DNA of 22,104 bases from an uncultured Lachnospiraceae bacterium (GTDB lineage: Bacteria; Bacillota; Clostridia; Lachnospirales; Lachnospiraceae), in the NCBI GenBank assembly GCA_949055985.1, contig CARRLP010000001.1, positions 1 through 22,104 of the forward strand. Direction: 5' to 3'. The notes under the pieces were generated by a model that ran no database searches, was not told the origin of the DNA, and saw nothing but the letters and a program-made list of their open reading frames with translations. The first letter of the stretch is position 1; every line of letters starts with the position of its first letter. Shown one piece after another: positions 3,444-22,104 of the stretch. The translations under genes were made by a program, and so were the position numbers.

Positions 3444-3453
3444 ATATAAAATC

Positions 3454-3480: not shown

Positions 3481-3515
3481 ATACTATAATGAAATCAACA
3501 TTTTTAAAATCTATT

Positions 3516-3587: not shown

Positions 3588-3620
3588 GTATAATTGAACA
3601 TTGAATAAGAAAAATATAGG

Positions 3621-3648
3621 TTGACAAATGTCAGCTTTTTATTATAAT
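3621..3648 (+). promoter_or_regulatory. sigma-A consensus promoter
   Basis: TTGACA (3621-3626), 16 nt, TATAAT (3643-3648). Both hexamers are perfect. It lies upstream of the 3687 ORF. Confidence 0.5.
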
Positions 3649-3686
3649 ACAAAAAAATATTGCTGGGCAATATGGAGGGGTATAGT

Positions 3687-4028
3687 ATGGAGGAATTTTC
3701 AAATTTATTGTGGCACAATATTGAAATTGTTCAGTGCATTTGTAATAAAATCGAGAATCAGGAAGCGTACATTGAGGATATTCGGGGATACCTTCCTTCT
3801 CTTAATCAAATGATTACATCAATATTTACAAATATGCAGCAAGGGCAAATTTCTTTGGAATTGAATCAAGGCTTTATTATTCAGGCGCTAAATGATATTC
3901 TATATGGAATAGAAAATGAAGATTCTGTATTTTTGCTTGATGTATTGCGATATGGGTTATTAGAAATTTATGGATACATAAGTAGTGAACTGCAAAGTGA
4001 GGGCTGTTATGAATCAGTTAATATATAA
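3687..4028 (+). CDS. hypothetical small protein (113 aa) upstream of maf and overlapping it
   Basis: ATG 3687 is preceded by GGAGGGG (3674-3680). The ORF-track start 3660 is a TTG. No motif recognised, including the FlaG VIRQIP motif. The 3' end overlaps the maf start by 20 nt. Confidence 0.5.
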   Translation: MEEFSNLLWHNIEIVQCICNKIENQEAYIEDIRGYLPSLNQMITSIFTNMQQGQISLELNQGFIIQALNDILYGIENEDSVFLLDVLRYGLLEIYGYISSELQSEGCYESVNI

Positions 4029-5907: not shown

Positions 5908-5941
5908 TAGGATCACATGATACAGGGCATTACAAAAAGCA

Positions 5942-5975
5942 GCGGGCGGCTGAAAATCAAATTTCAGCCGCCCGC
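5942..5975. terminator. bidirectional rho-independent terminator between convergent maf and the SDR gene
   Basis: Perfect 14-bp inverted repeat gcgggcggctgaaa/tttcagccgcccgc with a 6-nt loop. It is flanked by an A-run on the left and a T-run on the right. Confidence 0.8.
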
Positions 5976-5987
5976 GTTATGTATCTT

Positions 5988-8272: not shown

Positions 8273-8300
8273 TAAAGTTAAATTAAGGATAAGCCGATAA
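8273..8300 (+). promoter_or_regulatory. candidate sigma-28 type promoter for the rightward sugar-biosynthesis operon
   Basis: TAAA (8273-8276), N16, GCCGATAA (8293-8300). The spacer is 1 nt longer than consensus and there is one mismatch in the -10. Confidence 0.35.
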
Positions 8301-8369
8301 AAAGAATAAGAGTTAAATTGCGTTTTCTATCAGCATGGAAGCTGTATTTTATTCAGGGAGGAAGAAGAA

Positions 8370-8483
8370 ATGACGAAAAGGAAAGACATGCAGCGAAAAA
8401 TTGCATGGGGGGGGGAAAATCAGAATCTACTAAAAAGTGGAAAAAAATTCAAACTTTATATGGATTATCTCAAGAGACGTTAG
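8370..8483 (+). CDS. leader small ORF (37 aa) containing a G9 tract, a candidate phase-variable upstream peptide
   Basis: GGGAGG (8355-8360) lies 9 nt before ATG 8370. The SD context ttcagggagga echoes the duplicated flagellin leader. Codons tgg ggg ggg gaa span the G9 at 8407-8415. A +1 G fuses it to the long frame ending at 8605. Confidence 0.3.
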   Translation: MTKRKDMQRKIAWGGENQNLLKSGKKFKLYMDYLKRR

Positions 8484-8719
8484 GGGCAATTTTTTTGTTG
8501 CCTTTTTTTTGGTGTCTGCCGTTTGATCCGGTTATGGCTTGTAAAGGATATAAGTGTGTTGGGATAAGAATGGATAAGAATTGTTGGAAGGACGCCTATG
8601 TTTGAAACAAAGACAGCATGGGAAACGCAGTGAATATACTACAATTCTTTTTTTGCGTTTTATAACATTTTTTGCAACAGAAGATAATATGCCAAAATAG
8701 CTGGGAAGAAGGAATTAAA

Positions 8720-10300
8720 ATGAATTTAGAAGCTGAATTTGAACGGTTAAAAACATGTTCCCGTATTTTGATTTGGGGCGGCGGTTATCATACGAAAGAG
8801 GCGCTAAGGTTTTATAAATCTTTTTTTAGGGAACGGGACATACAGATTGTAGATAAGAATAAGGCAGGCCAAAGCATAGAAGGATATAAAATTATTGCTT
8901 CAGATGAAGCAGATTATTCGATTGATTATGTTGTGATTATGTCGTCAATATACCATGATGAAATTGAATATGCTTTGCGGAACAGACATGGTTATCAAGG
9001 GGCAGTGATAGGTTTATATGCGTTTCGGAGAGTTCTTTTAAAACTGGATTCATATGAAGAATGTATTGGGCATATGGAAGATTTTGTGTCTCATATGGAA
9101 CAAGGCATAGCAAGTTATTCTTACGACTATATATTTCAAGAAAACTATAGCGTATATAAAAAAATAAGGCTATATGCGTTTTGGGCGTCTTCTATTGGTG
9201 AATCAGTCCGGTATTTATCGGCATATTATGAAACTGTTTTTAAGGATAAGGCAGAAGATGAATACTGCCTGTTAATTCCCTATATAAAAGGGAATGATTT
9301 CGCGAATGGGCAATTTATAGAGGTTGTTTCCCGTACAGTTCCTATGGTTACATATTGCAACTGTCATTTTTGGGAGTATGCGGTGAAAAAGTACAGAGAG
9401 CGTTTTGATTTGACGTCTTATAATGAATTTAACGGTATTTTAGTGGATGCATATAATCAATTTGATGAACGGATTATAAACAGGACGTTTTGTGATAAAA
9501 AGTTTCCTTTGATTGCCTATACGCCGGAAGAACGTAAGATGGCGGAATATAAATTAAGGCAAATGGGCGTTTTTGGAGATTTCGTGTGTATATTTGCAAG
9601 AGATAACCACTATTTGCAGCATCAGTATGGACAGGCTTATGGAATTAATGAAATAAGAAATATGGATATCAATTCTTTTAAATCTGCAGTGGATTATTTG
9701 GAGGGACAGGGAGTAAAGGCAGTCCGCATGGGAAAAGTTGTCAACGGGCCGGTCAATCTGCCAAACTGCATAGATTATGCGGCGGATTTCCATAGCGACT
9801 TTATGGATTTATATTTATGCGGTAATTGCAAGTTTTATGCAGGGAGTTTGTCTGGGATTGTTGCGCTTGCCCAGCTTCAAAGCGCGCCTGTGGTTTTGCT
9901 CGGGGTGGTTCAGCTGGGGATTCACAATTCAATACCATATAGGAGCAGAGATATTTACGTCCCAAAGAAAATATATGACAAAAATAAGAAACGTTTTTTA
10001 AATTTTACGGAAATATGGGATGCGGAAATGGCCGCTAAGGACAAAATATCAAAATATTATGGGGAACACGGGCTTGAGTTTATAGAGCTTGGCAAAGAAG
10101 AAATAAAAGAAGCGATAGTGGAGATGAACGATAAATTAGATGGAGTGTATCAGGAAGACGAACAGGAAAAAGAACTTCAAAAGAAATATCATTTGCTGTT
10201 GGAAAACTGGATATTAGAGAATGGATACCAGTATTCTTATTTCTTGCATATTGACATAAGCGGCAGTTTTATTAAAAAGAATACATTTATGCTTGCATAG
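8720..10300 (+). CDS. hypothetical 526-aa protein, first gene of the rightward operon; possibly a sugar-transferase-like protein
   Basis: ATG 8720 is preceded by GGAAGAAGGAA. The ORF-track start 8672 is a TTG. No confident motif. The Rossmann-like N-terminus ILIWGGGYHTKEAL...IQIVDKN is suggestive only. Confidence 0.6.
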   Translation: MNLEAEFERLKTCSRILIWGGGYHTKEALRFYKSFFRERDIQIVDKNKAGQSIEGYKIIASDEADYSIDYVVIMSSIYHDEIEYALRNRHGYQGAVIGLYAFRRVLLKLDSYEECIGHMEDFVSHMEQGIASYSYDYIFQENYSVYKKIRLYAFWASSIGESVRYLSAYYETVFKDKAEDEYCLLIPYIKGNDFANGQFIEVVSRTVPMVTYCNCHFWEYAVKKYRERFDLTSYNEFNGILVDAYNQFDERIINRTFCDKKFPLIAYTPEERKMAEYKLRQMGVFGDFVCIFARDNHYLQHQYGQAYGINEIRNMDINSFKSAVDYLEGQGVKAVRMGKVVNGPVNLPNCIDYAADFHSDFMDLYLCGNCKFYAGSLSGIVALAQLQSAPVVLLGVVQLGIHNSIPYRSRDIYVPKKIYDKNKKRFLNFTEIWDAEMAAKDKISKYYGEHGLEFIELGKEEIKEAIVEMNDKLDGVYQEDEQEKELQKKYHLLLENWILENGYQYSYFLHIDISGSFIKKNTFMLA

Positions 10301-10349
10301 CATTCTGGCGGGAACAAAATTTGATGAATAAACAGGGGGAATTTGAATT

Positions 10350-11411
10350 ATGGCAGATAAAATCCGAATGGATTCGCACAAATTAATTTATCATCCAGAG
10401 AGGGTTGCGGCTTGGAAGCGTGGAGAAAATATATATCCGATTGAATTGGAAATAGGATTAACAAACGCCTGTAATCATAGATGCATTTTTTGCGCAGTGG
10501 ATTATACAGGTTACAAACCGACAATGCTTGAGGCGGATCTTTTAAAATTAAGGATCAGTGAGTTTGCAGAAAAAGGAGTGAAATCTATTATATATGCCGG
10601 AGAAGGGGAACCGCTTTTAAATAAAGACGCGGCAGATATTATTAATTTCACGAAAAAAAGCGGAATAGATGCGGCGTTATCTACAAATGGAGCATTGCTT
10701 ACGCCGGAAGCATCGAGAGACTGTCTGGCTTCTTTGACATGGATTCGTTTTAGTACGGCCGCAATTAGAGAAAAAACGTATGAGAAAATCCATCAATGCC
10801 GGAAAGGAGAGCTTAAAACTGTTTTAAATAATATTCAGGAAGCAGTCCGGACGAAAAAAGATCAAGGGCTCAAAACGACGATTGGCGCGCAATTATTGCT
10901 TCTGCCGGATAATAAAGATGAAGTTGTGGAGATGGCGAAGGAAATGAAAAAAATAGGAGTGGATTATTTTACGGTAAAACCATTTTCGCAGCATCCGTCA
11001 AGCGGCAATATCTTGCAAGTGGATTATCAGGAATTACTGGAATTGGAACGGGAATTAGAAGGAATTGGAACGGAAGAATTTAAAATATATTTCCGGGCGC
11101 ATTCTATGAAGAAATTGGCATGTGAGCGCGGTTATAAGCAATGTCTGGCGCTGCCATTTATGGTATACATTGATGCGAAGGGGAATTTATGGCCCTGTAT
11201 TGTGTTTATGGGGCAGGAACAGTTTAGTTATGGAAATTTATATAATGCATCATTTGAAGAAATATGGGAAGGAGAGCGGAGGAAGAAGCTGATTCAAGAG
11301 TTTTCCCAGATGGATTTAGAGAAAAATTGCAGGGAGTTGTGCAGGCTGGATGAAATGAATAAGTATCTCAATGATTTGAGAAATCCCGGACTTCATGTAA
11401 ATTTTATATAG
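10350..11411 (+). CDS. radical SAM protein (paralog A) with a Cys-rich C-terminal region
   Basis: CNHRCIFC is a CxxxCxxC motif about 40 aa from the N-terminus. Further Cys residues lie in the C-terminal third, possibly for an auxiliary cluster. The protein ends ...HVNFI. It is a clear paralog of the 13218 gene. Confidence 0.75.
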   Translation: MADKIRMDSHKLIYHPERVAAWKRGENIYPIELEIGLTNACNHRCIFCAVDYTGYKPTMLEADLLKLRISEFAEKGVKSIIYAGEGEPLLNKDAADIINFTKKSGIDAALSTNGALLTPEASRDCLASLTWIRFSTAAIREKTYEKIHQCRKGELKTVLNNIQEAVRTKKDQGLKTTIGAQLLLLPDNKDEVVEMAKEMKKIGVDYFTVKPFSQHPSSGNILQVDYQELLELERELEGIGTEEFKIYFRAHSMKKLACERGYKQCLALPFMVYIDAKGNLWPCIVFMGQEQFSYGNLYNASFEEIWEGERRKKLIQEFSQMDLEKNCRELCRLDEMNKYLNDLRNPGLHVNFI

Positions 11412-11461
11412 TATCCGTTTATTCCAATAGGAGAATAAATTTTAAGAGTTAGGAGAGAACG

Positions 11462-12307
11462 ATGGATTTAAAAGAGCGGGCGGCTGAAATAAGAAAAATG
11501 ATTTTTAAAATGGCATACCGGGGAGGGAGCGGGCATTTGGCATCGGCTTTTTCGATTGTGGAAATTTTAACGGTTTTATATTTTGGGGGAATTTTAAATA
11601 TAGATCCGAAAAATCCGGATTGGGCGCAAAGGGATAAATTGATATTAAGCAAGGGACACGCGAGTTTGGCATTATATAGTGTATTGGGTATGAAGGGATT
11701 TTTTCCACAAAAAGAGTTACAGACTTTTTGCAAGCCGGGTTCAGAATTCGGAGGAGAACCCAGAATGGGGCATATAACGGGCGTAGAGGCGACTACAGGC
11801 TCGCTTGGGCATGGGCTTTCATTTGGCGTGGGGATTGCAATGGCGCATAAGATGAATGGGGAAGCGAACAGGACATATGTGATAATTGGAGATGGCGAAT
11901 GCCAAGAAGGAAGCATATGGGAAGCTGTAATAGCGGCGCCGCACCACAAACTAGACAATTTGACAGTGATTTTAGATAATAACAGGCTACAGGCAATGGG
12001 GAAAGTGGAGGATATTCTTGCGTTGCGCCGCCTGCGGGAAAGCTGGGAAAATTTCGGCTGGGGCATCGCAACAGTAGATGGGCACGATATAGAAAAGCTT
12101 TGTAAATGTCTGGATAAGGACAGACAAACGGAGGATGGCAGACCGCATTTAATTTGTGCGGATACAGTGAAAGGAAAAGGCGTTTCCTTTATGGAAAGCG
12201 AGCCCATCTGGCATTATCGGATGCCGAATGAACAGGAATTAGAAATTGTATTGCAAGATTTGGGCATGACAAGAGAGGAGCTGATTCAATGCGAAATGAA
12301 TATTTAG
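11462..12307 (+). CDS. transketolase, N-terminal (TPP-binding) subunit
   Basis: GHITGVEATTGSLGHGLSFGVGIAMA and VIIGDGECQEGSIWEA are the transketolase TPP-binding motifs. The protein is 281 aa. AGGAGA precedes the ATG. Confidence 0.85.
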   Translation: MDLKERAAEIRKMIFKMAYRGGSGHLASAFSIVEILTVLYFGGILNIDPKNPDWAQRDKLILSKGHASLALYSVLGMKGFFPQKELQTFCKPGSEFGGEPRMGHITGVEATTGSLGHGLSFGVGIAMAHKMNGEANRTYVIIGDGECQEGSIWEAVIAAPHHKLDNLTVILDNNRLQAMGKVEDILALRRLRESWENFGWGIATVDGHDIEKLCKCLDKDRQTEDGRPHLICADTVKGKGVSFMESEPIWHYRMPNEQELEIVLQDLGMTREELIQCEMNI

Positions 12308-13212
12308 CGGAACTATATCATCTTGCAAAAAATGATCGGAATGTGCTTTCTTTAGTGTCCGATAATGGCATGATTGTATATGATGAATTTCGGGCGGCTT
12401 TTCCAGAGCAATATTTTAATTTTGGCATTTCAGAATGCCATATGATTGCGGCGGCGGCAGGAATGGCGACATGTGGGAAAATTCCTTTTGCATATACAAT
12501 TAGTTCATTTTTGGCGTACCGGGCATACGAATTTTTAAGGCTGGACGTATGTCTGGAAAATTTGAATGTAAAGATAGTTGGAATAGGCACAGGCGTATCT
12601 TATGGCTATTTAGGCCCTACGCATCATACGACAGAGGATTTGGCTCTTTTGCGATCACTGCCTAATTTGACTATATTTTCTCCGGCAAGCCCAATGGAAG
12701 CGCGCGAGGCGGTACGGGCTGCATATCAAATAAAGGGACCTGTCTATATCCGGCTTGGCAGCAGCGGGGAACCGGAGGTTCATACGGAAAAATTTTCTTT
12801 TGAAATTGGGAAAGGGCAGGTCATATTTGACGGGCATGACATTGCGCTGATAACTTCAGGGGCAATCACGGCTGAAGCGAAAATAGCGGCGGAGCGGCTT
12901 ATGGAAGAAGGAATATCAGTTAAGCTGATTAGTATGCACACGATAAAGCCTTTTGATGAGGATCTTATAGCAAAAACGGCTGAAAAGGTTTCTAAATTAG
13001 CTGTAATAGAAGAACATAATATTATCGGCGGGTTAGGAAGCGCAGTGGCTGAGACATTAGCAGACAGGCAGATTGCAATTCCTTTTTATAGAATTGGGTT
13101 ATATGATCAATTTGCAAAAGGCTATGGAACGGGACAACAGGTACGGATGCAAAATAGGCTGGACAGTGAAGGGATTTATCAACAAATCAGCCAATATGTA
13201 AAGGAAGGATGA
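12289..13212 (+). CDS. transketolase, C-terminal (pyrimidine-binding) subunit
   Basis: FNFGISECHMIAAAAGMATCG is the transketolase Pyr-domain motif. The protein is 307 aa. It overlaps the N-subunit gene by 19 nt. GAGGAG precedes the ATG. Confidence 0.85.
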   Translation: MRNEYLAELYHLAKNDRNVLSLVSDNGMIVYDEFRAAFPEQYFNFGISECHMIAAAAGMATCGKIPFAYTISSFLAYRAYEFLRLDVCLENLNVKIVGIGTGVSYGYLGPTHHTTEDLALLRSLPNLTIFSPASPMEAREAVRAAYQIKGPVYIRLGSSGEPEVHTEKFSFEIGKGQVIFDGHDIALITSGAITAEAKIAAERLMEEGISVKLISMHTIKPFDEDLIAKTAEKVSKLAVIEEHNIIGGLGSAVAETLADRQIAIPFYRIGLYDQFAKGYGTGQQVRMQNRLDSEGIYQQISQYVKEG

Positions 13213-13217
13213 CAAAA

Positions 13218-14327
13218 ATGGAGTCAGAAAAATTAATATTAGACGGCAGTAAAGTATTATGGCACAAAGATAGAATAGAGCAATGGAAAAGGGGGGAGCG
13301 TTTTGCGCCTGTTACGATTGATTGCGCGCTGACTACGAAATGCAGTTACCGCTGTGTGTATTGTTATGGAAAAATGCAGTGCATAAACCAGTCGGATAAT
13401 CTTGACGAAGAAACAATTTTACGCTTTTTAGAGGATGCGGCGGAAATAGGAGTAAAAGCGGTTAGTTTTGTAAGCGATGGAGAAAGCACATGTAACCCAC
13501 ATTTGAAAAAAGCGGTTTTACATGGCAAGAGCCTTGGATTAGATATGGCTCTTGGCACAAATGGCTTTTTGTTAAAAGATGAGGAATTAGAGGAAATTTT
13601 GCCGGCGCTTACTTATCTGCGTTTTAATATATCGGCTGGGGAGAGGGAACGATATGCCGAAATTCATGGCTGCGCCTTAAAATGCTATGATAAAGTAATT
13701 GAAACGATGAAAAAAGCGGTAGATATTAGGGAGAAGAAAGATCTGGCGGTTACAATTGGAATGCAAATGGTTTTAATGCCGGATTTTGCAGATCAGATTC
13801 TTCCGCTTACAAAGTTAGGCAGAGAGATTGGCGTGGATTATCTCGTGATTAAACATTGTAGTGATGATGAGGAAGGCACGCTTGGCGTAAATTACGAAAA
13901 ATATGATGCCGTGATTCCGGTTTTAAAGGAAGCGGAAACTTATTCTACGGATAAGTATCAGGTTTCGGCAAAATGGTCAAAGATTTTAAGCCATGGGAAG
14001 AAAAGTTACTGTAAGTGTTTTGGAGCCCCCTTTATTCTTCAAATGTCGGGTACGGGCCTTGTGGCTCCTTGTGGAATGTTTTTCAATGAGAAATACAGTA
14101 AATACCATATTGGAAATATTAAGGAAAAGAGATTTAAAGAGATATTTGAAAGCGACAGGTATTGGGAAGTTATGAAAATGATAACAGACGAAACTTTTGA
14201 TCCAAACCGCGATTGCGGTACGCTCTGTCTTCAGCATAAAACAAATGAGGCATTGTGGAAGATCTATCAAACAGGGACAATTCCAAAGAGTCCGGAAATT
14301 GAACCGAATCATATTAATTTTATATAA
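13218..14327 (+). CDS. radical SAM protein (paralog B) with a Cys-rich C-terminal region
   Basis: CSYRCVYC is a CxxxCxxC motif. Its N-terminus and C-terminus (...HINFI) align with paralog A. ATG 13218 has AAGGAAGG 9 nt upstream. The track start 13209 abuts that RBS, so 13218 is preferred. Confidence 0.75.
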   Translation: MESEKLILDGSKVLWHKDRIEQWKRGERFAPVTIDCALTTKCSYRCVYCYGKMQCINQSDNLDEETILRFLEDAAEIGVKAVSFVSDGESTCNPHLKKAVLHGKSLGLDMALGTNGFLLKDEELEEILPALTYLRFNISAGERERYAEIHGCALKCYDKVIETMKKAVDIREKKDLAVTIGMQMVLMPDFADQILPLTKLGREIGVDYLVIKHCSDDEEGTLGVNYEKYDAVIPVLKEAETYSTDKYQVSAKWSKILSHGKKSYCKCFGAPFILQMSGTGLVAPCGMFFNEKYSKYHIGNIKEKRFKEIFESDRYWEVMKMITDETFDPNRDCGTLCLQHKTNEALWKIYQTGTIPKSPEIEPNHINFI

Positions 14328-14366
14328 ATTTCAGAAATCTGGAAAAATAAGCATGGAGGCTGAAAA

Positions 14367-15896
14367 ATGGCACTTGTTGTGACAAAAGCGGAATTTAGGA
14401 ATATAAGAAAGGAATTGCGGGCGGAAGGGAAGAAAGTGGTTCTCTGCCATGGCGTATTTGATTTAGTGCATCCCGGCCATATCATTCATTTTGAAGAAGC
14501 AAAAAAGATGGGGGACGTTTTAGTGGCGTCTGTCACGGCGGCAAAATATGTGAGAAAAGGTCCGGATAGGCCGTATTTTGGAGATGAGATGCGTCTGAAA
14601 TTTTTATCTTCGATTGCGTATATTGATTATATTCTTTTGTCAGAGGGCTTTACTGTAGATGATATTATTGAAGCGGCGGAGCCGGACTTGTATGTAAAAG
14701 GCTCGGAGTATCAGGCGCAAGAAGATGACATTACCGGAAAGATTGCCGGAGAAATAGAGCTGGTCCGTAAACATGGAGGGGAAATTGCTTATACAGGCGG
14801 GCAGGTGTTTAGTTCAACGAAACTAATCAACCATGCTTTTCCATCACTTTCTGAGGAAGTGAAACAATTTATGAAATCATTTTCAGATAAGTATAGTTTA
14901 TCTGAAATCAGAGCGCTGGCGGAAAAAATTTCGGGCTTTAAGATAGCGGTAATTGGAGACGTAATTATAGATGAATATATTTATTGCAATGTACAGGGGT
15001 TAATGTCGAAAGACAGGGGATATTCTGCCCGTTATAGATATGTGGAGCAGTATTTAGGCGGTTCGTTAGCCGTGGCGAGGCATATTGCCTCATTTTGTGA
15101 CGACGTCACTCTTTTGAGCGTTGTAGGGAAAGAGGAGGCGGTACATAGCCGGATGTTAGACGAACTTGGCGATAAGATGAGGATAGACGTAACGTTTAGC
15201 GATGTTTTTGAAACCATTATAAAAACACGGTACGTTTCCATGAATGAAAAACGGGAAGAGCTTGATAAAATTTTCGCTGTAAATAACCTTCCTGTATATA
15301 TGCGCATTGATAAACCTGCATTAGATAAGTTTAAAGAAAAAATAAAAGAGAAAATAGAACAGTGTGACGTGGTTATTTTGTGTGATTTTGGGCATGGGCT
15401 GATAGATGAAGAAGTGATGGATTTGATTCAGTCTAAGGCGAAGTTTTTAGCGTTGAACTGCCAGACTAATTCATCGAATTATGGAAAAAATTTAATTACA
15501 AAATATAAACGGGCAGATGTATTTGCGATTGACCAGAAAGAATTGGGGCTGGCATTTGCGAATTACCGTTTAGATGAGCAAGAGCTTCTTCAGAAGTTAG
15601 AAAAACATTTGGACTGCCATGGGTGGCTGACACAGGGATCCCAAGGGGCAGTTTCGATTGAAGATGGAGAAATAAAACATTGTCCGGCATTTGTTTTAAA
15701 AGTGAAAGACACCATTGGAGCAGGGGATGCGTTCTTTTCCATTGCAAGCTTATTTGCGGCAGCAGGCGCTTCCATGGAGATGGGAACATTTATGGGAAAT
15801 ATTGCGGGGGCATTGGCGACAAATATCGTAGGAAACAAAAAAGGCATTGATAAAGTAGATGTACTGAAGTACGCTTCTACTTTACTTAATATATGA
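14367..15896 (+). CDS. bifunctional heptose-phosphate nucleotidyltransferase / sugar kinase (HldE/RfaE-like) with reversed domain order
   Basis: The N-terminal 140 aa carry a cytidylyltransferase-like HxGH motif (GVFDLVHPGHIIHF). The C-terminal 330 aa form a PfkB-family kinase with a DTIGAGDAF anion-hole motif. In E. coli HldE the kinase is N-terminal. Confidence 0.7.
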   Translation: MALVVTKAEFRNIRKELRAEGKKVVLCHGVFDLVHPGHIIHFEEAKKMGDVLVASVTAAKYVRKGPDRPYFGDEMRLKFLSSIAYIDYILLSEGFTVDDIIEAAEPDLYVKGSEYQAQEDDITGKIAGEIELVRKHGGEIAYTGGQVFSSTKLINHAFPSLSEEVKQFMKSFSDKYSLSEIRALAEKISGFKIAVIGDVIIDEYIYCNVQGLMSKDRGYSARYRYVEQYLGGSLAVARHIASFCDDVTLLSVVGKEEAVHSRMLDELGDKMRIDVTFSDVFETIIKTRYVSMNEKREELDKIFAVNNLPVYMRIDKPALDKFKEKIKEKIEQCDVVILCDFGHGLIDEEVMDLIQSKAKFLALNCQTNSSNYGKNLITKYKRADVFAIDQKELGLAFANYRLDEQELLQKLEKHLDCHGWLTQGSQGAVSIEDGEIKHCPAFVLKVKDTIGAGDAFFSIASLFAAAGASMEMGTFMGNIAGALATNIVGNKKGIDKVDVLKYASTLLNI

Positions 15897-15934
15897 TGAT
15901 TCTAAAGATATATTTATAAAATGGAGGGTAAGAA

Positions 15935-17575
15935 ATGAAGATTTTGTTGGTGGTTCCGCAATACTATAGCCGGAAAGAACGATATTATCAAATGCCATTA
16001 GGCTTAGCGTATGTGAATGCAGCTCTGCGGGAAGCAAATTTAGATGTGCAATGCCTGAATATGAACCATATTGAAGCAGAAGACGCCTATTCAGTTTTAG
16101 CTGAACGGGTAGTAAATTCCAATATTGACGTTGTCCTTTGCGGCGGAATAAGCCCGCTTTGGAAAACGATTGAAAAAGTGTTTGATACAGTTAAAAGGGC
16201 AAAAGCTTCCATAATTACTGTGGGGGGGGGTGGAGCCTTTACGTCGGAGCCTCTTATTTCAGCGGAACTTCTTGAAGTAGATTATGCTGTAATTGGAGAA
16301 GGGGAGATTACAGATGTAGAGCTTATTCAAACGTTGATGGCGAATCAGAATGTAAGCAATGTAAAAGGAATTGTATATAAAACGCCGGACGGATATAGGC
16401 AGACGGCTCCGAGGGAAGAAATTGCCGATGTGGATTCCATTCCATTTCCATGCTATGAGGGGTTTGACATGGATTTATATTTAGAAAATCAAATGGTGAG
16501 CGATGAATATTATTCTTTTTATTCGGACAAGCCGAGAATTATGCCGATGATTTTAGGCAGGTCATGCCCTTATCAATGCAAATTTTGTTTTCACCCTATA
16601 GGAAATAAATACAGGGTGCGAAGTCTGGATAATTTTTTTATGGAACTGGATCAATGGAAGAATAAGTATGCTCCAACCTGTATTTTGATATTAGATGAAT
16701 TATTTAGCGCAAGCGTTGAAAGAGTGTATGAGTTTTGTGAAAGAATAAAAGGATATGAGATAAAATGGATTGTCCAAATGCGGGTGGATATTATCACGAA
16801 AGAGTTATTGCAGACAATGCGGGACGCCGGATGCCTCAGCATCAGTTATGGACTTGAAAGTTTTAGCCCTGCAGTTTTGAAAAATATGAGAAAACATATC
16901 TCTTTAGCAGACATAGAAAACGCTTTAAAATTGACTTATGAAGCAAAAATAGACATTCAGGGCAATTTTATTTTTGGAGACGAGTTAGAAAATGAGCATA
17001 CGATATATGAAACATTGCGGTTTTGGTTTCAGCATCCAGAATATAAAATTAATTTGGGGTGGATAGAGACATATCCGGGATGCGGCTATTATCAGGAATT
17101 ATCAAAAAATTGGAGCGTTGAGGAGAAAAAAGCATTTTTAGAAATGAGTGAATGGCTGACAAATTTAACAAAGATGCCAGATGAAGAATATGGGAAATAT
17201 AAAGTTGTGATTCAACTGCTTACATTTTATTATAACCCAGATTGTGTGAAAGAAAAAGAGACGCGGACAGACGAAAATGGCGATGGGATTATTGAAGCGA
17301 AGTGCGTGCATTGCGGTTCGGTAAATCGGTGGGCAGGAGTTAAAAAATATCTGCTAAATCAATCGTATTTTAAATTATGCTGCCGGAAATGCAATCATAG
17401 GAATGTGATTTACAGCAGGAAAGAAAGGTTAAAAAATTGGGATTTAATTCTGCCATTATGTGAGAAAATGGCTTTGGCAACAAAGGAAGATGAATTTATT
17501 AAAGCGGTAAACGCTTTATATGAGACGTATATGGTGACGCATGACCCAGAAAATCCATTTCCTGTTTTGTTTTAG
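15935..17575 (+). CDS. B12-binding-domain radical SAM enzyme (class B) with a C-terminal Cys4 zinc-ribbon-like tail
   Basis: The N-terminus ILLVVPQ...MPLGLAYVNAAL...VVLCGG is a B12-binding-like domain. The radical SAM motif is CPYQCKFC. The C-terminus has CVHCGS...CCRKCNH. A G9 tract lies at 16222-16230, encoding GGGG. Confidence 0.75.
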   Translation: MKILLVVPQYYSRKERYYQMPLGLAYVNAALREANLDVQCLNMNHIEAEDAYSVLAERVVNSNIDVVLCGGISPLWKTIEKVFDTVKRAKASIITVGGGGAFTSEPLISAELLEVDYAVIGEGEITDVELIQTLMANQNVSNVKGIVYKTPDGYRQTAPREEIADVDSIPFPCYEGFDMDLYLENQMVSDEYYSFYSDKPRIMPMILGRSCPYQCKFCFHPIGNKYRVRSLDNFFMELDQWKNKYAPTCILILDELFSASVERVYEFCERIKGYEIKWIVQMRVDIITKELLQTMRDAGCLSISYGLESFSPAVLKNMRKHISLADIENALKLTYEAKIDIQGNFIFGDELENEHTIYETLRFWFQHPEYKINLGWIETYPGCGYYQELSKNWSVEEKKAFLEMSEWLTNLTKMPDEEYGKYKVVIQLLTFYYNPDCVKEKETRTDENGDGIIEAKCVHCGSVNRWAGVKKYLLNQSYFKLCCRKCNHRNVIYSRKERLKNWDLILPLCEKMALATKEDEFIKAVNALYETYMVTHDPENPFPVLF

Positions 17576-17592
17576 GAAAAGGATTTCCGCCA

Positions 17593-18288
17593 TTAAATTG
17601 TGACATTAAAGTATTGTTGGGCCTTACAGTATTTTTTCTGCCTGTTTCTGATTAAGACACTGCCGTCAGGGTTACGCAGCACAACGGAATCATCGGAGAC
17701 CGGCTGTCCATATACAAACGCATCTACTCCAATGGATACACGGTTTCCGATTGGTTCATTGCCTATAATTTTAGCTCCGGCGGCTAAGTAGAGCCCTTTT
17801 CCGAGTTTTGGGACAGTTTCGCCGACAGGGCTTTCACCGGTATTGATGGTGACATTTTGGCCTATTACAAGAAAATCACTGTAAGCTGCATTGCCAATTA
17901 CGCTTCCTACCGGATGTGTAAGGAAGAATATTTCCGGCAGTTTGCCTTTGTAAGAGATAAAAAAACTATGTAAAGTTTTATTCAAGTAAATTAATTTGTC
18001 ACAGACAGATTTGTTTGCGGAAAGCTCCCACAGTGAGTTAGCCCAAAAATATAAAAACTGGGCATACTGGTCAGAATGCAGATGCGAGAAAAATGTTTCG
18101 CCTTGGTTATCTGAATATGCGGAATTTTTAATAAAACGGAAGCAATGCTCTGTCCGTTCTAAGGCGCGTTCAAAAGCGGCGTCAACGTCGCTGCCTTTTA
18201 GAGTATGAGTATTGCGATCCGGAAAAAAAAGCTCTAACTGATGCAGCGTATATGTTTGAAGTTCTTGTTTCGGTAATGATAGGTTCAT
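17593..18288 (-). CDS. hexapeptide-repeat (left-handed beta-helix) acetyltransferase, serine-acetyltransferase-like, a probable sugar O/N-acetyltransferase
   Basis: The C-terminal half has hexapeptide repeats (VGSVIGNAAYSDFLVIGQNVTINTG...). ATG at 18288 overlaps the upstream TGA as ATGA, with GGAAG in front. The longer track ORF start at 18405 falls inside the GT2 gene. Confidence 0.6.
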   Translation of the reverse strand: MNLSLPKQELQTYTLHQLELFFPDRNTHTLKGSDVDAAFERALERTEHCFRFIKNSAYSDNQGETFFSHLHSDQYAQFLYFWANSLWELSANKSVCDKLIYLNKTLHSFFISYKGKLPEIFFLTHPVGSVIGNAAYSDFLVIGQNVTINTGESPVGETVPKLGKGLYLAAGAKIIGNEPIGNRVSIGVDAFVYGQPVSDDSVVLRNPDGSVLIRNRQKKYCKAQQYFNVTI

Positions 18289-19256
18289 TTCTTCTTCCTT
18301 TTTTGAATATAAATTGGCTCTAAAATAAAACGTGGGAGAATTGCGTATGGCCATACATGGAACCATATCGTAGGATATTTGTATGTATTTAAAAATAATA
18401 TCCATTTATCGTCCATATCATACTGATTATCCTCTACGCTGTATTTTAGGATAGAATCTTTAATAAATCCTTTCATGTCAGTAAGAAAGATTTTTTTCAT
18501 CTGGCTTTTTGGAAAACCGGCTTTTACGGCTGTTTGGAGCAAAAGTCTTTTATATTGCTTTACCCAGACTTCAAATAAATTAAATCCGCCGCTGTTATTA
18601 TTTTTTGCGGCTAAATAGGGGGCTTTTGTCAGGATCATTTTAGTATTTTTGCCTGAGAGAATGTGAAATACGATATGCGCGTGTAGAAAATGGGTTCCAA
18701 AATATTTCTCAGGATGCTTTATTTGTTTAAATTTGCTCATTTTCAGAACGGTTGCAGATATATACGTTACATAAACGCCAATGTAATTCATCAGAAGGGT
18801 TTTATCGTAAGTAATCAGATCGTTTGTTTCCCTAAGTTTTATTCTTGGCGCTTTTCTAATGTCCGGATTGAATGTCTGTGTTGAATATGTAAAAGAATTT
18901 ATATTAATATAGGCTGGTCTTTCTGTTTTTATCAGATATAATATTTTTTTTATCGCTCCGGGCAGCAATATGTCATCGTCCGAGAGAAACTGTATATATT
19001 CGCCGTTCGCTTTTTGGAAACAGTTAAAAAAATTTTTATCCATACCCAAATTTTTTGAATTACGATAATAACGTATCTTATGTTCTTTGCAATATTTTTT
19101 CATTACTTTTGGGGTCTCGTCTGTGGAAGCGTTATCTGATACAAGGATTTCAACGCCGTCTTCCAACTGCCCTAGCGCGCTTTCTAATGACTGGCATAAT
19201 AAATGACAGCGGTTATAGGTAGGGATAGCGACTGTCAGTATAATTTTTTGTCCCAT
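18285..19256 (-). CDS. family 2 glycosyltransferase (GT-A fold)
   Basis: ILTVAIPTYNR...SDNASTDET...DDD fits the GT2 DxD architecture. ATG 19256 has AGAGGT upstream. The N-terminal extension in the track ORF overlaps the upstream gene. Confidence 0.7.
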   Translation of the reverse strand: MGQKIILTVAIPTYNRCHLLCQSLESALGQLEDGVEILVSDNASTDETPKVMKKYCKEHKIRYYRNSKNLGMDKNFFNCFQKANGEYIQFLSDDDILLPGAIKKILYLIKTERPAYININSFTYSTQTFNPDIRKAPRIKLRETNDLITYDKTLLMNYIGVYVTYISATVLKMSKFKQIKHPEKYFGTHFLHAHIVFHILSGKNTKMILTKAPYLAAKNNNSGGFNLFEVWVKQYKRLLLQTAVKAGFPKSQMKKIFLTDMKGFIKDSILKYSVEDNQYDMDDKWILFLNTYKYPTIWFHVWPYAILPRFILEPIYIQKRKKK

Positions 19257-19260
19257 GATC

Positions 19261-20193
19261 TTACCTCTTTCTTTTGGTTTCATAATACTGGATTGTTTTT
19301 TGGATGCCTTCTTCAAAGGGAATTTCAGGCTTCCAGCCGGTATCTCTTGTAAGAGGTTCAATATTGATACAAGAACTTGGCATTATGCCGGGGGAGCTGA
19401 TTTTTCTTTCGGGAGGGGGAGTTTTTTCTCCAATGCCTAAAGGAAGCGATGGGTTTATCATGTCCCGAATAGTTAAGACGTATTCCCGAAGTGTTTTGTG
19501 CGTTCCGCTTCCTATTCCATATGTAATATTATGCCTGCCTTTCTCTCCAATTTTAATAATTGCTTTTGCTACATCTGATACATAGACAAAATCCCAATTA
19601 GACTGGAGATTGCCATAGACAGGGTATTTGCCATCTAAAAGAGTGGTAATCGTATAAGTCAGGATATTGTCTTCTGTTCTTCCTTCCCCATATGTGCTTG
19701 GAAGAACAGTCCAAATCATATCCTGCCCTAATTGCGCGGCAACGGCTTCTAACAGATAGTGGACGGAAGTTTTTGTGGCTCCATAGATGTCAATGGGCGT
19801 CTGTTTCCTTGAAAAATCAATGACGCATACATTATAAACATATTCTGCCACTGTGCCTGCGGCCAGAAATAGTTTGCATTTTAAATATTTAGAGAGACGT
19901 AACATATCCAGAGAAGTTTCGATATTGCTTAATTGCAAAGGAATGTTGTTTTTTTCTTTCCCAGAAACGCCTGCCCAGCCAAGATGATAAAATATATCAT
20001 ATGTTTTTCCAGACAGCCTTTGCGCCAGTTCTTTAAATTGATAGCCGGCAGTTATTGTTTTTACGGAAGAATTATGAAATGGCATAGAGGAGGGGGAGGA
20101 GGTCAGGACGGTTACGTTAGCGCCTGATTTTAATAATTCCGCAACAACATATCTGCCGATAAATCCGGTTCCTCCTGTAAGAATGGCTTTCAT
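19261..20193 (-). CDS. NAD(P)-dependent epimerase/dehydratase/reductase (extended SDR)
   Basis: The N-terminus ILTGGTGFIGRYV is a Rossmann motif. The catalytic YxxxK motif is YGATK. The protein is 310 aa. Confidence 0.75.
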   Translation of the reverse strand: MKAILTGGTGFIGRYVVAELLKSGANVTVLTSSPSSMPFHNSSVKTITAGYQFKELAQRLSGKTYDIFYHLGWAGVSGKEKNNIPLQLSNIETSLDMLRLSKYLKCKLFLAAGTVAEYVYNVCVIDFSRKQTPIDIYGATKTSVHYLLEAVAAQLGQDMIWTVLPSTYGEGRTEDNILTYTITTLLDGKYPVYGNLQSNWDFVYVSDVAKAIIKIGEKGRHNITYGIGSGTHKTLREYVLTIRDMINPSLPLGIGEKTPPPERKISSPGIMPSSCINIEPLTRDTGWKPEIPFEEGIQKTIQYYETKRKR

Positions 20194-20203
20194 ATTCTTC
20201 CTC

Positions 20204-21217
20204 CTACTGTTCCATGCGTTTTAGAATGATGTCTGCATAGCTGTCTATATCGTCGGTTGTATTCGCCGACAGGCTTTCGCAATGTCTGCAGATTGGTATA
20301 TCGTCTTTCCTCTTTTTTAAGTGGAGTTTTTGGTACTGGCAAAGTTTTTCGCCATTCCAAATATCCGCAATTTTTTCGGTTTTTAAATCGCCTAAAATAT
20401 ATTCTGTTTTCCAGTCTACACAGCACAGATGCGCAATGCCGGAATGGTTTATTACCATCGTAGTAAATAAAAATGGGCAGACTTCTTTTGGTTGTAGCTC
20501 CTGGCCGTAAGTGCCTTTATGGGCGTTGTTTATTTTTGCGCCGATATTTGTGTCCTGCCAAAGGGTGGAAGAAATGGTTTCTACAAATATTTCGTCAGAC
20601 ACTTTTTCAAATGTCTGGTAAAAATTCTGTTTTTCTGTTTCGGTATAACCAATATCGCTGTATTTAATAAAGATTTTACAATTCTGTTTATTTTTATAGA
20701 AAAACTCGATTTTTTTATAGAAATCCTGAAAGTCCATTTCGTATTGGCATACGTCTTTGTACTGTTGTTCATTAATTCCATTTACTGAAATATTTAATAT
20801 GTCAAGACCTGCCTCAATAAGCTCAAGGCTGAGCGTTTCGTTTAGAAGCGTGCCGTTGGTCGTGATTTCAATACATTCTGCGGCCTCTGCTTTTTTGGCA
20901 TAGGCTGCCATTTGGGCAATCTTGGGATTCATCAAGGGCTCTCCGATTTTAAACAGCCTTAATTTTTTGATTTTTTGTCTGCCCCAGCAAGAGACAATGT
21001 CGTCTATGATTTTTTGGAAAAGTTCCAAAGACATTGCGCCAAATGTTACATTAGATTTTTTTATGGTTTCCATGTCTGAGTGGAAACAAAAATTGCATTT
21101 TAAATTACAGGCGCTGCATACGTCAATTTGAATTGCAAAGGGCGCGGAAAGCGGCAGAACTTCCTGTAACGGGGTTCTTTCCCTTGCGTAAATTTTGGCT
21201 CTTCTTATTGCGCTCAT
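20204..21217 (-). CDS. radical SAM enzyme with a C-terminal SPASM-type auxiliary cluster domain
   Basis: CNLKCNFC is a CxxxCxxC motif. The C-terminal Cys array CPFLF...HLCCVDW...CQYQ...CRHC is SPASM-like. GGAGGT lies 7 nt before ATG 21217. Confidence 0.75.
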   Translation of the reverse strand: MSAIRRAKIYARERTPLQEVLPLSAPFAIQIDVCSACNLKCNFCFHSDMETIKKSNVTFGAMSLELFQKIIDDIVSCWGRQKIKKLRLFKIGEPLMNPKIAQMAAYAKKAEAAECIEITTNGTLLNETLSLELIEAGLDILNISVNGINEQQYKDVCQYEMDFQDFYKKIEFFYKNKQNCKIFIKYSDIGYTETEKQNFYQTFEKVSDEIFVETISSTLWQDTNIGAKINNAHKGTYGQELQPKEVCPFLFTTMVINHSGIAHLCCVDWKTEYILGDLKTEKIADIWNGEKLCQYQKLHLKKRKDDIPICRHCESLSANTTDDIDSYADIILKRMEQ

Positions 21218-21243
21218 CGTTGTACCTCCGTGTGGTCTGCTTT

Positions 21244-22104
21244 TTAAGGCAGCATAAGTTTTTTTATTTCATCTTCTTCTAAGAAAGGATACATATCATG
21301 TAAAGCGGGAGTTTTCATTTTGCCGTTTTCATCTATGCGTGACATGACTTTTGGAATAACAGGATCGTCAAATGCCTGCAATACTTCCAGTATCATATGC
21401 TTTGTTGTCTGCATAAAAGCATGTAAGCAGGAATCCACTTCGCCATTATTATGGCAGCAAAGATATTTAAACCCGAATGTGTCTGCAATTTTTTTAAAAT
21501 CAGGGAAACTTACTCCGGTATCCGGCGTACAGCCAATGTATTCTCCTTGAAAGAAGTTTTTTGAAGTCTGCCGGATTGCCCCATAACCTTCATTTGAAAA
21601 GATAACGATTGAAATTGGAAGATCGTACTGGGCAATCGTTTGAAGTTCTTGTAGGTTCATCATTATGCTTCCGTTTCCTGTAATGCAGTATACGCCGGAT
21701 TTGGAGGAGATGGCGGCGCCTATGGCCGCGGGAATATCGTATCCCATAGATCCGCAAGTATAATTTGTAAGAATCCGTTGGTTTCTCTTTTGGGTTCCAA
21801 TTTGTAATTTTGCAGTATTTGCGCTGTTGTTGCCAAGCGCTAAAATGCTGTTATCCGGTTCATGTGAATGGAACTGTTTCCAAAAATAGTAGGAAGAAAC
21901 CCTGTCTGACAAATGAACGCCATGCCGGATTGCTTCATATGGAGAAAAGCGTTCTTTTAGGTTTTGGCAGTAGGAAAGCCATTCTTTATGCGGCATACAG
22001 GGGATGACGCTCTGTCTGGCAGTTTCAAAAAACTGATTTAGGTCTATATGGAGGCTCTTTTGGATTTTAAGCCCCGGTTTTAGGGCTTCGTTTTTGTCAG
22101 CGTC
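21244..22104 (-). CDS. TPP-dependent enzyme, acetolactate-synthase-like family, C-terminal TPP-binding domain; 5' end outside the window
   Basis: GSMGYDIPAAIGA...ITGNGSIMMNLQEL is the TPP-binding motif of the ALS/POX family. The reading frame stays open from 21996 to the window end. The track ORF's first Met is therefore internal. Confidence 0.7.
   Translation of the reverse strand, partial: DADKNEALKPGLKIQKSLHIDLNQFFETARQSVIPCMPHKEWLSYCQNLKERFSPYEAIRHGVHLSDRVSSYYFWKQFHSHEPDNSILALGNNSANTAKLQIGTQKRNQRILTNYTCGSMGYDIPAAIGAAISSKSGVYCITGNGSIMMNLQELQTIAQYDLPISIVIFSNEGYGAIRQTSKNFFQGEYIGCTPDTGVSFPDFKKIADTFGFKYLCCHNNGEVDSCLHAFMQTTKHMILEVLQAFDDPVIPKVMSRIDENGKMKTPALHDMYPFLEEDEIKKLMLP

Follow-up and report, generated by a model that had tools for sequence, protein, structure and literature searches.

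The window analysed here, a stretch of 22,104 nucleotides from an uncultured Lachnospiraceae bacterium (contig CARRLP010000001.1), combines the genes for a flagellin and a Maf-type flagellin glycosyltransferase with genes of sugar-nucleotide metabolism, several of them encoding radical SAM enzymes. It appears, on balance, to be the left half of a flagellin glycosylation island that covers at least 40 kb, varies between strains and belongs to a gut Lachnospiraceae host. The island is a mosaic of separable sugar-nucleotide modules and not a single heptose pathway, because the heptose-type cassette and the module pairing a thiamine diphosphate (ThDP, or TPP) enzyme with the radical SAM protein rSAM3 each occur without the other. 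A first-pass annotation of the same DNA had placed in positions 8273–22104 one island for a single, heavily tailored heptose. The gene types that it named are all present and pass the Pfam gathering scores, but the genes for flagellin, Maf, GmhA, GmhB and one short-chain dehydrogenase/reductase (SDR) lie upstream of that interval (2283–8109), and the single heptose has to be given up, the two sets of genes being independent and one of them standing among NeuB-type genes in other loci (L099 and L100). All coordinates refer to the whole window, and the proteins were scanned with the Pfam gathering cut-offs and the NCBIfam equivalog cut-offs.

The core of the window, designated module B, is a cassette composed of a GalE-like SDR of 327 residues (SDR327), a GmhB-like phosphatase, a GmhA-like isomerase, the two subunits of a split transketolase (TktN and TktC), a bifunctional nucleotidyltransferase-kinase and the paralogous radical SAM proteins rSAM1 and rSAM2 (Table 1). 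A scan of species-representative genomes for rSAM1 yielded at least 556 confirmed matches; 80 loci with flanks of 10 kb were analysed, originating from Lachnospiraceae, Butyrivibrio, Selenomonas, Veillonellaceae, Schwartzia, Fretibacterium and Acutalibacteraceae. Within 10 kb of rSAM1, the nucleotidyltransferase-kinase is present in 75 of the 80 loci, the GalE-like SDR in 68, TktN in 66, TktC and GmhA in 61 each and GmhB in 41, the cassette being truly without GmhB in about 19 of 56 loci. Synteny of the core genes across 80 other species shows that their combination goes beyond chance. This synteny, together with the fusions described below and the similarity of the TPP enzyme to JanthE, also bears out the earlier assignment of the radical SAM and TPP genes to sugar-nucleotide metabolism. 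The most conserved gene of the cassette is SDR327, with a median identity of 82% across 68 loci, the medians of the other genes being 52–59% (57% for rSAM1), save rSAM2 at 71%; the 90%-identity cluster of SDR327 consists of a single sequence found on 497 contigs. Rare accessories around the cassette are the cobalamin-binding (B12) radical SAM enzyme, with true orthologues in about four of the 80 loci, the TIGR04372-family glycosyltransferase and the entire minus-strand operon at the right end of the window.

Within the rSAM1 family, fusions to a cytidylyltransferase-like domain were seen in three representatives, and those to a SIS domain, a full acetolactate synthase (ALS)-like TPP enzyme and a methyltransferase once each. 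The fused or otherwise unusual members are P0121, P0132, P0156, P0144, P0135, P0130 and P0231, one of them with an intein and an HNH endonuclease; P0121 is flanked by an HD-domain protein and a PseC-like aminotransferase (L087). As only a minority of the cassette loci are linked to flagellin and the rest lie among other sugar genes, the core cassette is regarded as a portable sugar-supply module, recruited by the flagellin islands of a minority of lineages. Where flagellar genes are missing, as in L085 (2234–5921) and, similarly, L019, L027, L047 and L059, the cassette is preceded by a protein of 255 residues without assigned function, by two tandem IspD/TarI-like cytidylyltransferases and by a conserved protein of about 451 residues that has no Pfam or NCBIfam match. 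This arrangement hints at a different acceptor system, perhaps of the polyol-phosphate type.

Concerning the radical SAM enzymes of the cassette, rSAM1, its invariant partner, exhibits the invariant residues C41/C45/C48 (CxxxCxxC) and the conserved cysteines C265/C283/C327/C331, the four C-terminal ones indicating one auxiliary cluster of the twitch type. The best fold match of its AlphaFold model (pLDDT 96) is DesII, and both DesII and BlsE are within the top three; the DesII family model TIGR04426, however, gives 38 bits for rSAM1 and 33.9 bits for rSAM2 against a cut-off of 450. The family is large, comprising at least 4,364 close relatives; among the representatives at 50% identity, an E-value of 1e-3 or less is reached by 22,224 and one of 1e-30 or less by 502. 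As had been supposed in the first-pass annotation, rSAM1 and rSAM2 are paralogues, both with the CxxxCxxC motif and 27% identical over their full length (E 3e-53), and rSAM3 is only distantly related to them. The same annotation had counted a single SPASM radical SAM protein; in fact, all three proteins without a B12-binding domain possess a SPASM/twitch domain. Orthologues of rSAM2 (64–84% identity) occur in 17 loci, and about 50 loci contain instead a third type of paralogue of about 356 residues. In the locus L071, a DesI-like aminotransferase and a formyltransferase follow directly after rSAM1; at the same position of L068, there are open reading frames (ORFs) of comparable size. The best NCBIfam matches of the B12 enzyme—BchE, HpnJ, ApyD and PhpK—are all far under their cut-offs, and its best match in the PDB is AprD4 (4e-14), covering just the radical SAM core.

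The best solved relatives of the heptose-type activities are heptose enzymes (GmhA, HldC and HldA), GmhB being suggested by a score somewhat under the cut-off and by the zinc loop. For the GmhA-like isomerase, all 13 top PDB matches are phosphoheptose isomerases (E 7e-19). The GmhB-like phosphatase gives 127.1 bits with TIGR00213 (cut-off 149.6), passes the HAD-IIIA and histidinol-phosphatase domain models and shows a readable CPHH...CNCRKP zinc-loop motif. The closest structures for the nucleotidyltransferase-kinase are HldC (1.8e-13), TagD (2e-11) and HldA (5e-11); the motifs CHGVFDLxHPGH, TxGxxxSSTxLIN and DTxGAGDAF are kept in its 72 orthologues, and HxGH is present. TktC aligns with the C chain of the solved split transketolase over residues 9–285 (E 5.8e-67), and since it is a solid member of the split transketolases, it is consistent with a role in precursor supply. 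SDR327 has 4-epimerases, Pal and UXS as its best PDB matches, and it displays the S-S-S...YxxxK pattern that we take to be typical of 4-epimerases, without the D-E pair presumably characteristic of 4,6-dehydratases. Its identity as the heptose 6-epimerase HldD was considered and rejected, the score of 112 bits (cut-off 275) being below those that the same protein achieves as GalE and as LegB. Because four heptose-type genes share one operon, a route to a nucleoside diphosphate (NDP)-heptose is the most economical reading of the cassette.

The domain identities, synteny, fusions and fold similarity being as described above, the substrates and reaction types that we infer would be as follows. 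The dedicated split transketolase would raise the supply of sedoheptulose-7-phosphate, from which the GmhA-like isomerase would give heptose-7-phosphate; the PfkB domain of the bifunctional enzyme would then phosphorylate C1, the GmhB-like phosphatase would strip the 7-phosphate and the cytidylyltransferase-like domain would form the NDP-heptose, whichever the nucleotide. This product would be remodelled by the GalE-like SDR via a transient 4-keto intermediate and by rSAM1 and rSAM2, which, by analogy with DesII, BtrN and HygY, would abstract a hydrogen from the sugar and subsequently oxidise, epimerise or deoxygenate it, the B12 enzyme being an optional candidate C-methylase. Because GmhB is optional, it was also considered whether the transketolase might turn the radical SAM by-product 5-deoxyribose into a 7-deoxy-heptose in a salvage reaction (cf. 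PMC8102628); no evidence supporting this was found.

The second set of sugar genes, module C, consists of an SDR of 295 residues (SDR295) encoded just past the window, the YerE-like ThDP enzyme, rSAM3, SDR310 and an acyltransferase, and it would make a separate sugar. The TPP enzyme, cut by the window end, is a full-length protein of 594 residues in other strains, with ALS-type N, M and C domains; its best solved relative is JanthE (8rph, 340 bits over the full length versus 248 bits for the acetolactate synthase ALS II), which is itself a ThDP enzyme of the YerE-like kind and joins 2-keto acids with ketones, ErwE being likewise YerE-like (PMC12188165). With the three ALS-type domains and a YerE-like enzyme nearer to it than acetolactate synthase, it is considered YerE-like; a phosphonopyruvate decarboxylase or a split enzyme was rejected, the full-length orthologue being a three-domain ALS-type protein. 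rSAM3, the C-terminus of which resembles BtrN (2e-7), represents a small family of 246 proteins (E≤1e-10) and accompanies an ALS-like TPP enzyme and SDRs in every context inspected (L092, L094, L099 and L100), one of these being a deltaproteobacterial sugar cluster. The C-terminal half of SDR310 resembles dTDP-glucose 4,6-dehydratases.

Module C lies directly beside flagellin in two other lineages. In the KK002-type Lachnospiraceae island (L092/L093), the SDR, TPP and rSAM3 genes directly follow the flagellin gene, and Maf, an unknown protein of 558 residues, a GT2 glycosyltransferase of 573 residues and phosphocholine genes are present, too. In L099, the orthologues of the TPP enzyme, rSAM3 and the acyltransferase (65, 59 and 51% identity, the last encoded by the gene after rSAM3) are located together with a 295-residue RmlD-like SDR just upstream of flagellin. 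Module C is thus an independent unit tied to flagellin islands. Since in both L099 and L100 it is interleaved with genes for NeuB, a NeuC-like 2-epimerase, a CBS-nucleotidyltransferase, a Polysacc_synt_2 4,6-dehydratase and a DegT aminotransferase, a 4-keto-6-deoxy-hex(osamin)e or a nonulosonate precursor is a likelier substrate for it than the heptose. A 4-keto-6-deoxy sugar nucleotide would gain a two-carbon branch from a 2-keto acid, and reduction, radical tailoring and acylation would follow; a second, paralogous pair of a TPP enzyme (601 residues) and a radical SAM protein (341 residues) is encoded beside a PseB-type dehydratase past the window. In L092 (12843–18048), a sulfatase/phosphodiesterase-like protein, a choline kinase, a LicC-like nucleotidyltransferase and a BCCT transporter are encoded beside the SDR-TPP-rSAM3 genes, the choline genes suggesting a phosphocholine decoration of flagellin glycans.

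The island is anchored by the adjacent genes for flagellin and Maf, an arrangement that defines the Maf-type flagellin glycosylation islands. These two and the small ORF between them make up, together with the GT1_2, TIGR04372 and GT2 glycosyltransferases, module A, which would attach the sugars to flagellin. The longest ORF of the flagellin starts from TTG at 2208, the gene call in the strain L001 (370 residues) beginning MAMVVQHNL. Maf exhibits, in addition to its main domain, a weak match to Maf_flag10_N, and its score with the PseD-like model NF050051 (107.6 bits) is far under the cut-off of 670. A domainless ORF of 108–125 residues precedes Maf also in L001, L007 (19348), L010, L012 (1646) and L092 (18518–18844), overlapping the Maf gene in several lineages, and its product may act as a partner of Maf or in the handling of flagellin. 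The link to the flagellum postulated in the first-pass annotation is further substantiated by 13 of the 80 cassette loci, a number lowered by the flank limit of 10 kb, which undercounts flagellin neighbours; these loci contain flagellin or Maf within that distance of rSAM1, with genes for FliD, FlaG, FliW and FlgK there as well. In L011, the cassette is inserted between PseB-WbuX-HisH-WbuZ and PseF, immediately after flagellin and Maf. The family of the GT1_2 transferase, found here at the left edge of the island, is represented by a protein of about 690 residues directly upstream of rSAM1 in 12 flagellin-linked loci, and orthologues of the TIGR04372 transferase adjoin rSAM1 in L008, L017 and L023.

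Table 1 Genes and sites identified in the window, in order of position
Feature	Coordinates	Strand	Basis (bit scores; cut-offs where given)
Glyco_trans_1_2 (CgeB-like) glycosyltransferase, 509 aa	469..1998	-	Pfam PF13524, 58.2 bits; left island edge
Flagellin, 370 aa	2283..3395	+	Flagellin_N 148.6 bits, Flagellin_C 98 bits
Promoter-like site	3621..3648	+	Ahead of the small-ORF/Maf operon; 12/12 hexamer match to sigma-70 consensus; consensus match only
Small protein, 113-122 aa, overlapping the Maf start	3660..4028	+	No Pfam or NCBIfam match
Maf-type flagellin glycosyltransferase (MptE-like/DUF115), 632-640 aa	3985..5907	+	PF01973 119.8 bits, cut-off 34.6
Bidirectional terminator-like hairpin, 14 bp	5942..5975	.	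Between the convergent Maf and SDR genes
GalE/UXS-like extended SDR (SDR327), 327 aa	5988..6971	-	galE 190, LegB 166, heptose 6-epimerase 112 bits; all under cut-off
GmhB-like HAD-IIIA phosphatase, 187 aa	6968..7531	-	NF006506 149.5 bits, cut-off 178
GmhA-like SIS sugar-phosphate isomerase, 193 aa	7528..8109	-	TIGR00441 90.8 bits, cut-off 209.45
TIGR04372-family glycosyltransferase, 526-542 aa, first gene of plus-strand operon	8672..10300	+	TIGR04372 174 bits, cut-off 45
rSAM1, twitch-type radical SAM, invariant cassette partner	10350..11411	+	Radical_SAM 68 bits; SPASM (PF13186) 36.3 bits, cut-off 21.5
TktN, split transketolase N-terminal (TPP-binding) subunit	11462..12307	+	Transketolase_N 154 bits; NF004559 262.8 bits
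TktC, split transketolase C-terminal subunit	12289..13212	+	NF004559 202.9 bits; best PDB match Carboxydothermus split transketolase C chain 6yaj
rSAM2, rSAM1 paralogue, 369-372 aa	13209..14327	+	SPASM (PF13186) 27.7 bits, cut-off 21.5
Bifunctional cytidylyltransferase-like nucleotidyltransferase and PfkB sugar kinase	14367..15896	+	CTP_transf_like 48 bits, PfkB 55 bits
Cobalamin-binding (class B) radical SAM, 546 aa	15935..17575	+	B12-binding PF02310 46.7 bits, cut-off 32.1; Radical_SAM PF04055 62.3 bits
CysE/WcaB-like hexapeptide acyltransferase, 231-270 aa	17593..18405	-	cysE 44 bits
GT2 glycosyltransferase, 323-358 aa	18285..19361	-	Glycos_transf_2 97 bits
Extended SDR (SDR310), 310 aa	19261..20193	-	Epimerase 109 bits; RmlB-type best matches in NCBIfam and PDB
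rSAM3, radical SAM with full SPASM domain, 337 aa	20204..21217	-	Radical_SAM 55 bits; SPASM (PF13186) 51.1 bits, cut-off 21.5
YerE-like ThDP enzyme, C-terminal 286 codons, cut by the window end	21244..22104	-	TPP_enzyme_C 110 bits

According to the ORF listing and the Pfam and NCBIfam matches, a plus-strand unit of flagellin, the small domainless ORF and Maf converges with a minus-strand unit of the GalE-like SDR, GmhB-like and GmhA-like genes (5988–8109); it is followed by a divergent plus-strand operon (8672–17575) running from the TIGR04372 transferase through rSAM1, TktN, TktC, rSAM2 and the nucleotidyltransferase-kinase to the B12 enzyme, and by a convergent minus-strand operon, from 22104 down to 17593, with the TPP enzyme, rSAM3, SDR310, the GT2 transferase and the acyltransferase. 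The promoter-like site and the hairpin next to Maf are consistent with these units. In the divergent region between the GmhA-like and TIGR04372 genes, there is a domainless ORF of 95 residues (8318–8605) with a terminator-like hairpin inside it (8482–8505); it corresponds to a gene call in L090 (95 residues) and to ORFs of 78 residues in L002 and L091. The Rfam scan returned no matches.

Proteins identical to those of the window were found in 839 blocks of the assembly collection, the contigs reaching lengths of 230 kb, and their homologues come from Lachnospiraceae and Roseburia. On the right, the island continues for at least 18 kb beyond the window end, as seen in L097 (5386–21002, i.e. about 2–18 kb past the end). 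The first gene is that of SDR295, heading the TPP operon; then a divergent operon encodes an unknown protein of 561 residues, a GT2 transferase of 571 residues, an RmlD-like SDR and, about 9.5 kb past the end, a PseB equivalog (507 bits, cut-off 408). These are followed by two unknowns of 485 and 476 residues, a fifth radical SAM/SPASM enzyme (341 residues, 29% identical to rSAM3), an unknown of 409 residues, a methyltransferase of 514 residues, an unknown of 288 residues, a second YerE-like TPP enzyme (601 residues, 42% identical to the first) and an aldo-keto reductase that closes the series. The five unknowns (561, 485, 476, 409 and 288 residues) have no Pfam match. Neither in the window nor in the 18 kb that follow did Pfam and NCBIfam reveal a gene for PseC, PseI, PseF, a NeuC-like enzyme, a CMP-synthetase or a NeuB-type synthase. 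The idea that a standard pseudaminic acid island adjoins the window was rejected, the 10 kb beyond PseB containing another radical SAM/TPP pair instead of PseC, PseH, PseG, PseI and PseF.

It should be pointed out that the island differs from strain to strain. In the strains L002 and L004, the gene of the B12 enzyme is split into parts of 114 and 413 residues (L002, 15586–17225) and that of the GT2 transferase is shortened to 107 residues (L002, 18582–18905); one strain possesses two tandem flagellin genes (L002, 587–3045). Together with the D452N allele of the TPP enzyme (see below), the split, shortened and duplicated genes suggest either glycan diversification or decay between strains, and for the accessory tailoring genes they suggest strain-level decay or phase-like variation. 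On the left, beyond position 469, the GT1_2 gene has a DDE transposase as its immediate neighbour in L090 (11803–13422), and many assemblies break there; the best match among species-representative genomes is only 81% identical to rSAM1. The transposase, the breaks and this low best match suggest that the island is variable or mobile.

Several observations weigh against the explanation of the window as an island for flagellin glycans with a heptose-type cassette. None of the enzymes of module B reaches an NCBIfam equivalog cut-off, and the complete heptose pathway of the first-pass annotation amounts to best-hit similarity below the equivalog level throughout. Some metal-site positions of the GmhA-like isomerase are apparently substituted when judged against the residues that we take to be those of GmhA. 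In the protein previously described as HldE-like, both expected domains are found, but the nucleotidyltransferase (residues 27–118) precedes the PfkB kinase (192–485), which is the reverse of the HldE order, and the scores are low: 150.5 bits versus 521 for HldE (NF008454), 119.7 versus 345 for rfaE domain I and 91.3 versus 181.5 for rfaE domain II. Its nucleotidyltransferase domain is about equally close to TagD and HldC, and the published (F/L)xxGxSTT motif (PMC11461863) is replaced by TxGxxxSST in the 72 orthologues. As to the flagellum, 67 of the 80 cassette loci are without flagellin or Maf within 10 kb, their neighbours being methyltransferases, aminotransferases, IspD-like cytidylyltransferases and glycosyltransferases; flagellin and Maf do anchor the present island, as had been claimed, but the core cassette is no hallmark of flagellin loci. 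The sugars that Maf enzymes are known to transfer are nonulosonates, yet about 40 kb of the island contain no gene for NeuB or a CMP-synthetase. Finally, the ALS-like TPP enzyme of the earlier annotation is present, with the YerE-like JanthE as its nearest solved relative, but in the window its gene is truncated and carries the substitution D452N (AAC, 21673–21675, minus strand): the ThDP/Mg motif, GDG in seven of seven aligned homologues and CDG in JanthE, reads GNG. This substitution is the sole difference from the strain L003 across the 286 residues compared; either an inactivating allele or an error of sequencing could account for it, and the YerE-like enzyme of the window may, judging from the motif, be inactive.

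Among the alternatives, it is possible, if doubtful, that module C tailors a nonulosonic acid or a 2,4-diamino-6-deoxy-hexose precursor, Maf transferring the product and the remaining pathway being encoded elsewhere in the genome. The presence of Maf, the PseB equivalog past the window end and the orthologues of the TPP enzyme, rSAM3 and the acyltransferase amid NeuB-type genes upstream of flagellin in L099, with the same gene mix in L100, all agree with such a role, and a nonulosonate synthase and a CMP-synthetase are present in the related islands L011, L099 and L100. In the window and the 18 kb beyond it, however, genes for NeuB/PseI, PseC/LegC, a NeuC-like enzyme and a CMP-synthetase are all missing, and the KK002-type island L092 combines the module and Maf with no nonulosonate gene in 21 kb.

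A function of module B in the cell envelope, for a glycopolymer of the capsule or teichoic-acid-like kind, is unlikely; the cassette would then be a mere neighbour of the flagellin genes in this genome, and only Maf and the YerE-like module would act on flagellin. The many cassette loci without flagellin or Maf would fit this, all the more as they are long co-directional clusters with the tandem IspD-like cytidylyltransferases, the 451-residue protein without Pfam match, methyltransferases, DegT and GT2 proteins. Their number is, however, inflated by the same 10-kb flank limit, and the cassette of the window is wedged between the Maf operon and module C, for which a link to flagellin exists in three other lineages. 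In the 13 flagellin-linked loci it stands among FliD, FlaG, FliW, flagellin and Maf—in L011 between PseB and PseF—and neither Pfam nor NCBIfam detected a Wzx, Wzy, priming-transferase or TagF-type gene in the window.

Rather improbable is the extension of the carbon chain by the TPP enzymes, in which a radical SAM protein would oxidise a sugar nucleotide to an aldehyde or ketone and the transketolase or the YerE-like enzyme would add a C2 unit to give a C9 or larger sugar. TPP and radical SAM proteins are repeatedly paired (the fusion P0135 and two pairs within one island), the transketolase forms a sub-operon with an rSAM1 paralogue in L016, L051 and L052, and the auxiliary-cluster site of rSAM1 with its four cysteines is typical of oxidising twitch enzymes. 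On the other hand, TktC is about equally similar to the solved split transketolase of a distant Firmicute and to the cassette orthologues, and therefore shows no sign of a new transketolase function; the transketolase is also missing from otherwise complete cassettes, e.g. L024, L026, L046 and L060, and no transketolase known to us has a nucleotide sugar as its substrate.

That the radical SAM proteins are maturases of ribosomally synthesised and post-translationally modified peptides or of cofactors, unrelated to sugars, is hardly conceivable and was rejected, since their scores are three- to ten-fold under the respective cut-offs (the best being 93.5 versus 380, for a tungsten-cofactor maturase), no precursor-peptide gene is evident next to them, the neighbours are sugar enzymes with synteny in 75 of 80 loci, the family is fused to nucleotidyltransferase, SIS and TPP domains, and DesII and BlsE are among the top fold matches; homology searches likewise placed neither the radical SAM nor the TPP genes in a known cofactor or peptide pathway.

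Based on the above, the explanation of the window as part of a modular flagellin glycosylation island is preferred: the modules appear to be real, widespread and uncharacterised, and they probably decorate the flagellum, which is of immunological importance, with unusual sugars. The kinds of components—flagellin islands, NDP-heptose synthesis, YerE-type branching and sugar-modifying radical SAM enzymes—are known, their combinations are not; literature searches on flagellin glycosylation, radical SAM, heptose, transketolase and Maf, of incomplete coverage, found no description of the system. More tentatively, the conserved cassette may be a pathway common among anaerobic Firmicutes, in which the radical SAM enzymes remodel an NDP-heptose to a type of sugar not described before, which, together with a branched sugar made by the YerE-like and SPASM enzymes, might be O-linked to flagellin in this commensal. 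If so, this would be the first heptose-derived flagellin glycan, and the ThDP carboligase with its SPASM radical SAM partner would represent a new two-enzyme unit for the synthesis of C-branched or chain-extended sugars. For the families of rSAM1 and rSAM3, which have no assigned reaction, a defined substrate context is now open to testing: an NDP-heptose for the former and a 4-keto-6-deoxy sugar nucleotide for the latter. In Crohn's disease, the flagellins of Lachnospiraceae act as dominant antigens, and some of these flagellins are 'silent' TLR5 ligands; next to nothing is known of their glycans, and a chemically unusual, strain-variable one would have consequences for antigenicity, for phage resistance and for recognition by the host. 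NDP-heptoses act as agonists on the innate sensor ALPK1 (PMC11461863), and a pathway for heptose in Gram-positive commensals that are abundant in the gut would therefore be relevant to host signalling as well.

With regard to known systems, the B12 enzyme shares with the class B sugar C-methyltransferases GenK, GenD1 and Fom3 the N-terminal B12-binding domain, the radical SAM core and the location in a sugar cluster; unlike them, it matches no equivalog, its nearest solved relative is the dehydratase AprD4, and it is an accessory enzyme with a frameshifted gene in some strains. rSAM1 is only about 15–17% identical to DesII, BlsE, BtrN, HygY and AbmJ, the substrates of which are sugars linked to nucleotides or aminoglycosides, its own presumed substrate being an NDP-heptose, and its four-cysteine auxiliary (twitch) site is presumably absent from DesII. 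The NDP-D-glycero-beta-D-manno-heptose pathway serves the lipopolysaccharide (LPS) of Gram-negative bacteria, and related heptose enzymes occur across kingdoms (Tang et al. 2024, summarised in PMC11461863). The cassette resembles that pathway in combining a SIS isomerase, a PfkB kinase, a HAD-IIIA phosphatase and a nucleotidyltransferase of the cytidylyltransferase fold with HxGH. It deviates from it in the sub-equivalog scores, the reversed domain order, the variant of the STT motif and the GalE-like SDR in place of the 6-epimerase HldD; moreover, the host is Gram-positive and has no LPS, and one or two twitch radical SAM proteins are obligately linked to the cassette, usually along with a dedicated transketolase.

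The Maf islands of Campylobacter, Helicobacter, Aeromonas, Clostridium botulinum and Geobacillus have the same arrangement of flagellin adjoining Maf and variable sugar genes, including a strain-variable content and pseudogenes; the present island, in contrast, lacks a nonulosonate synthase and a CMP-synthetase in its approximately 40 kb, and it contains five radical SAM proteins, two YerE-like ThDP enzymes and a heptose-type cassette, for which no report in such islands was found. Concerning the yersiniose branched-chain synthase YerE, as well as JanthE and ErwE, the TPP enzyme is, like them, a three-domain ALS-like ThDP protein, and the dehydratase-like SDR310 and the reductase-like SDR295 flank it in the way that DdhB and YerF presumably do in the yersiniose pathway. 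Unlike those systems, and apart from the GNG allele in the window, it invariably has a SPASM radical SAM enzyme as its partner, and it belongs to a flagellin island.

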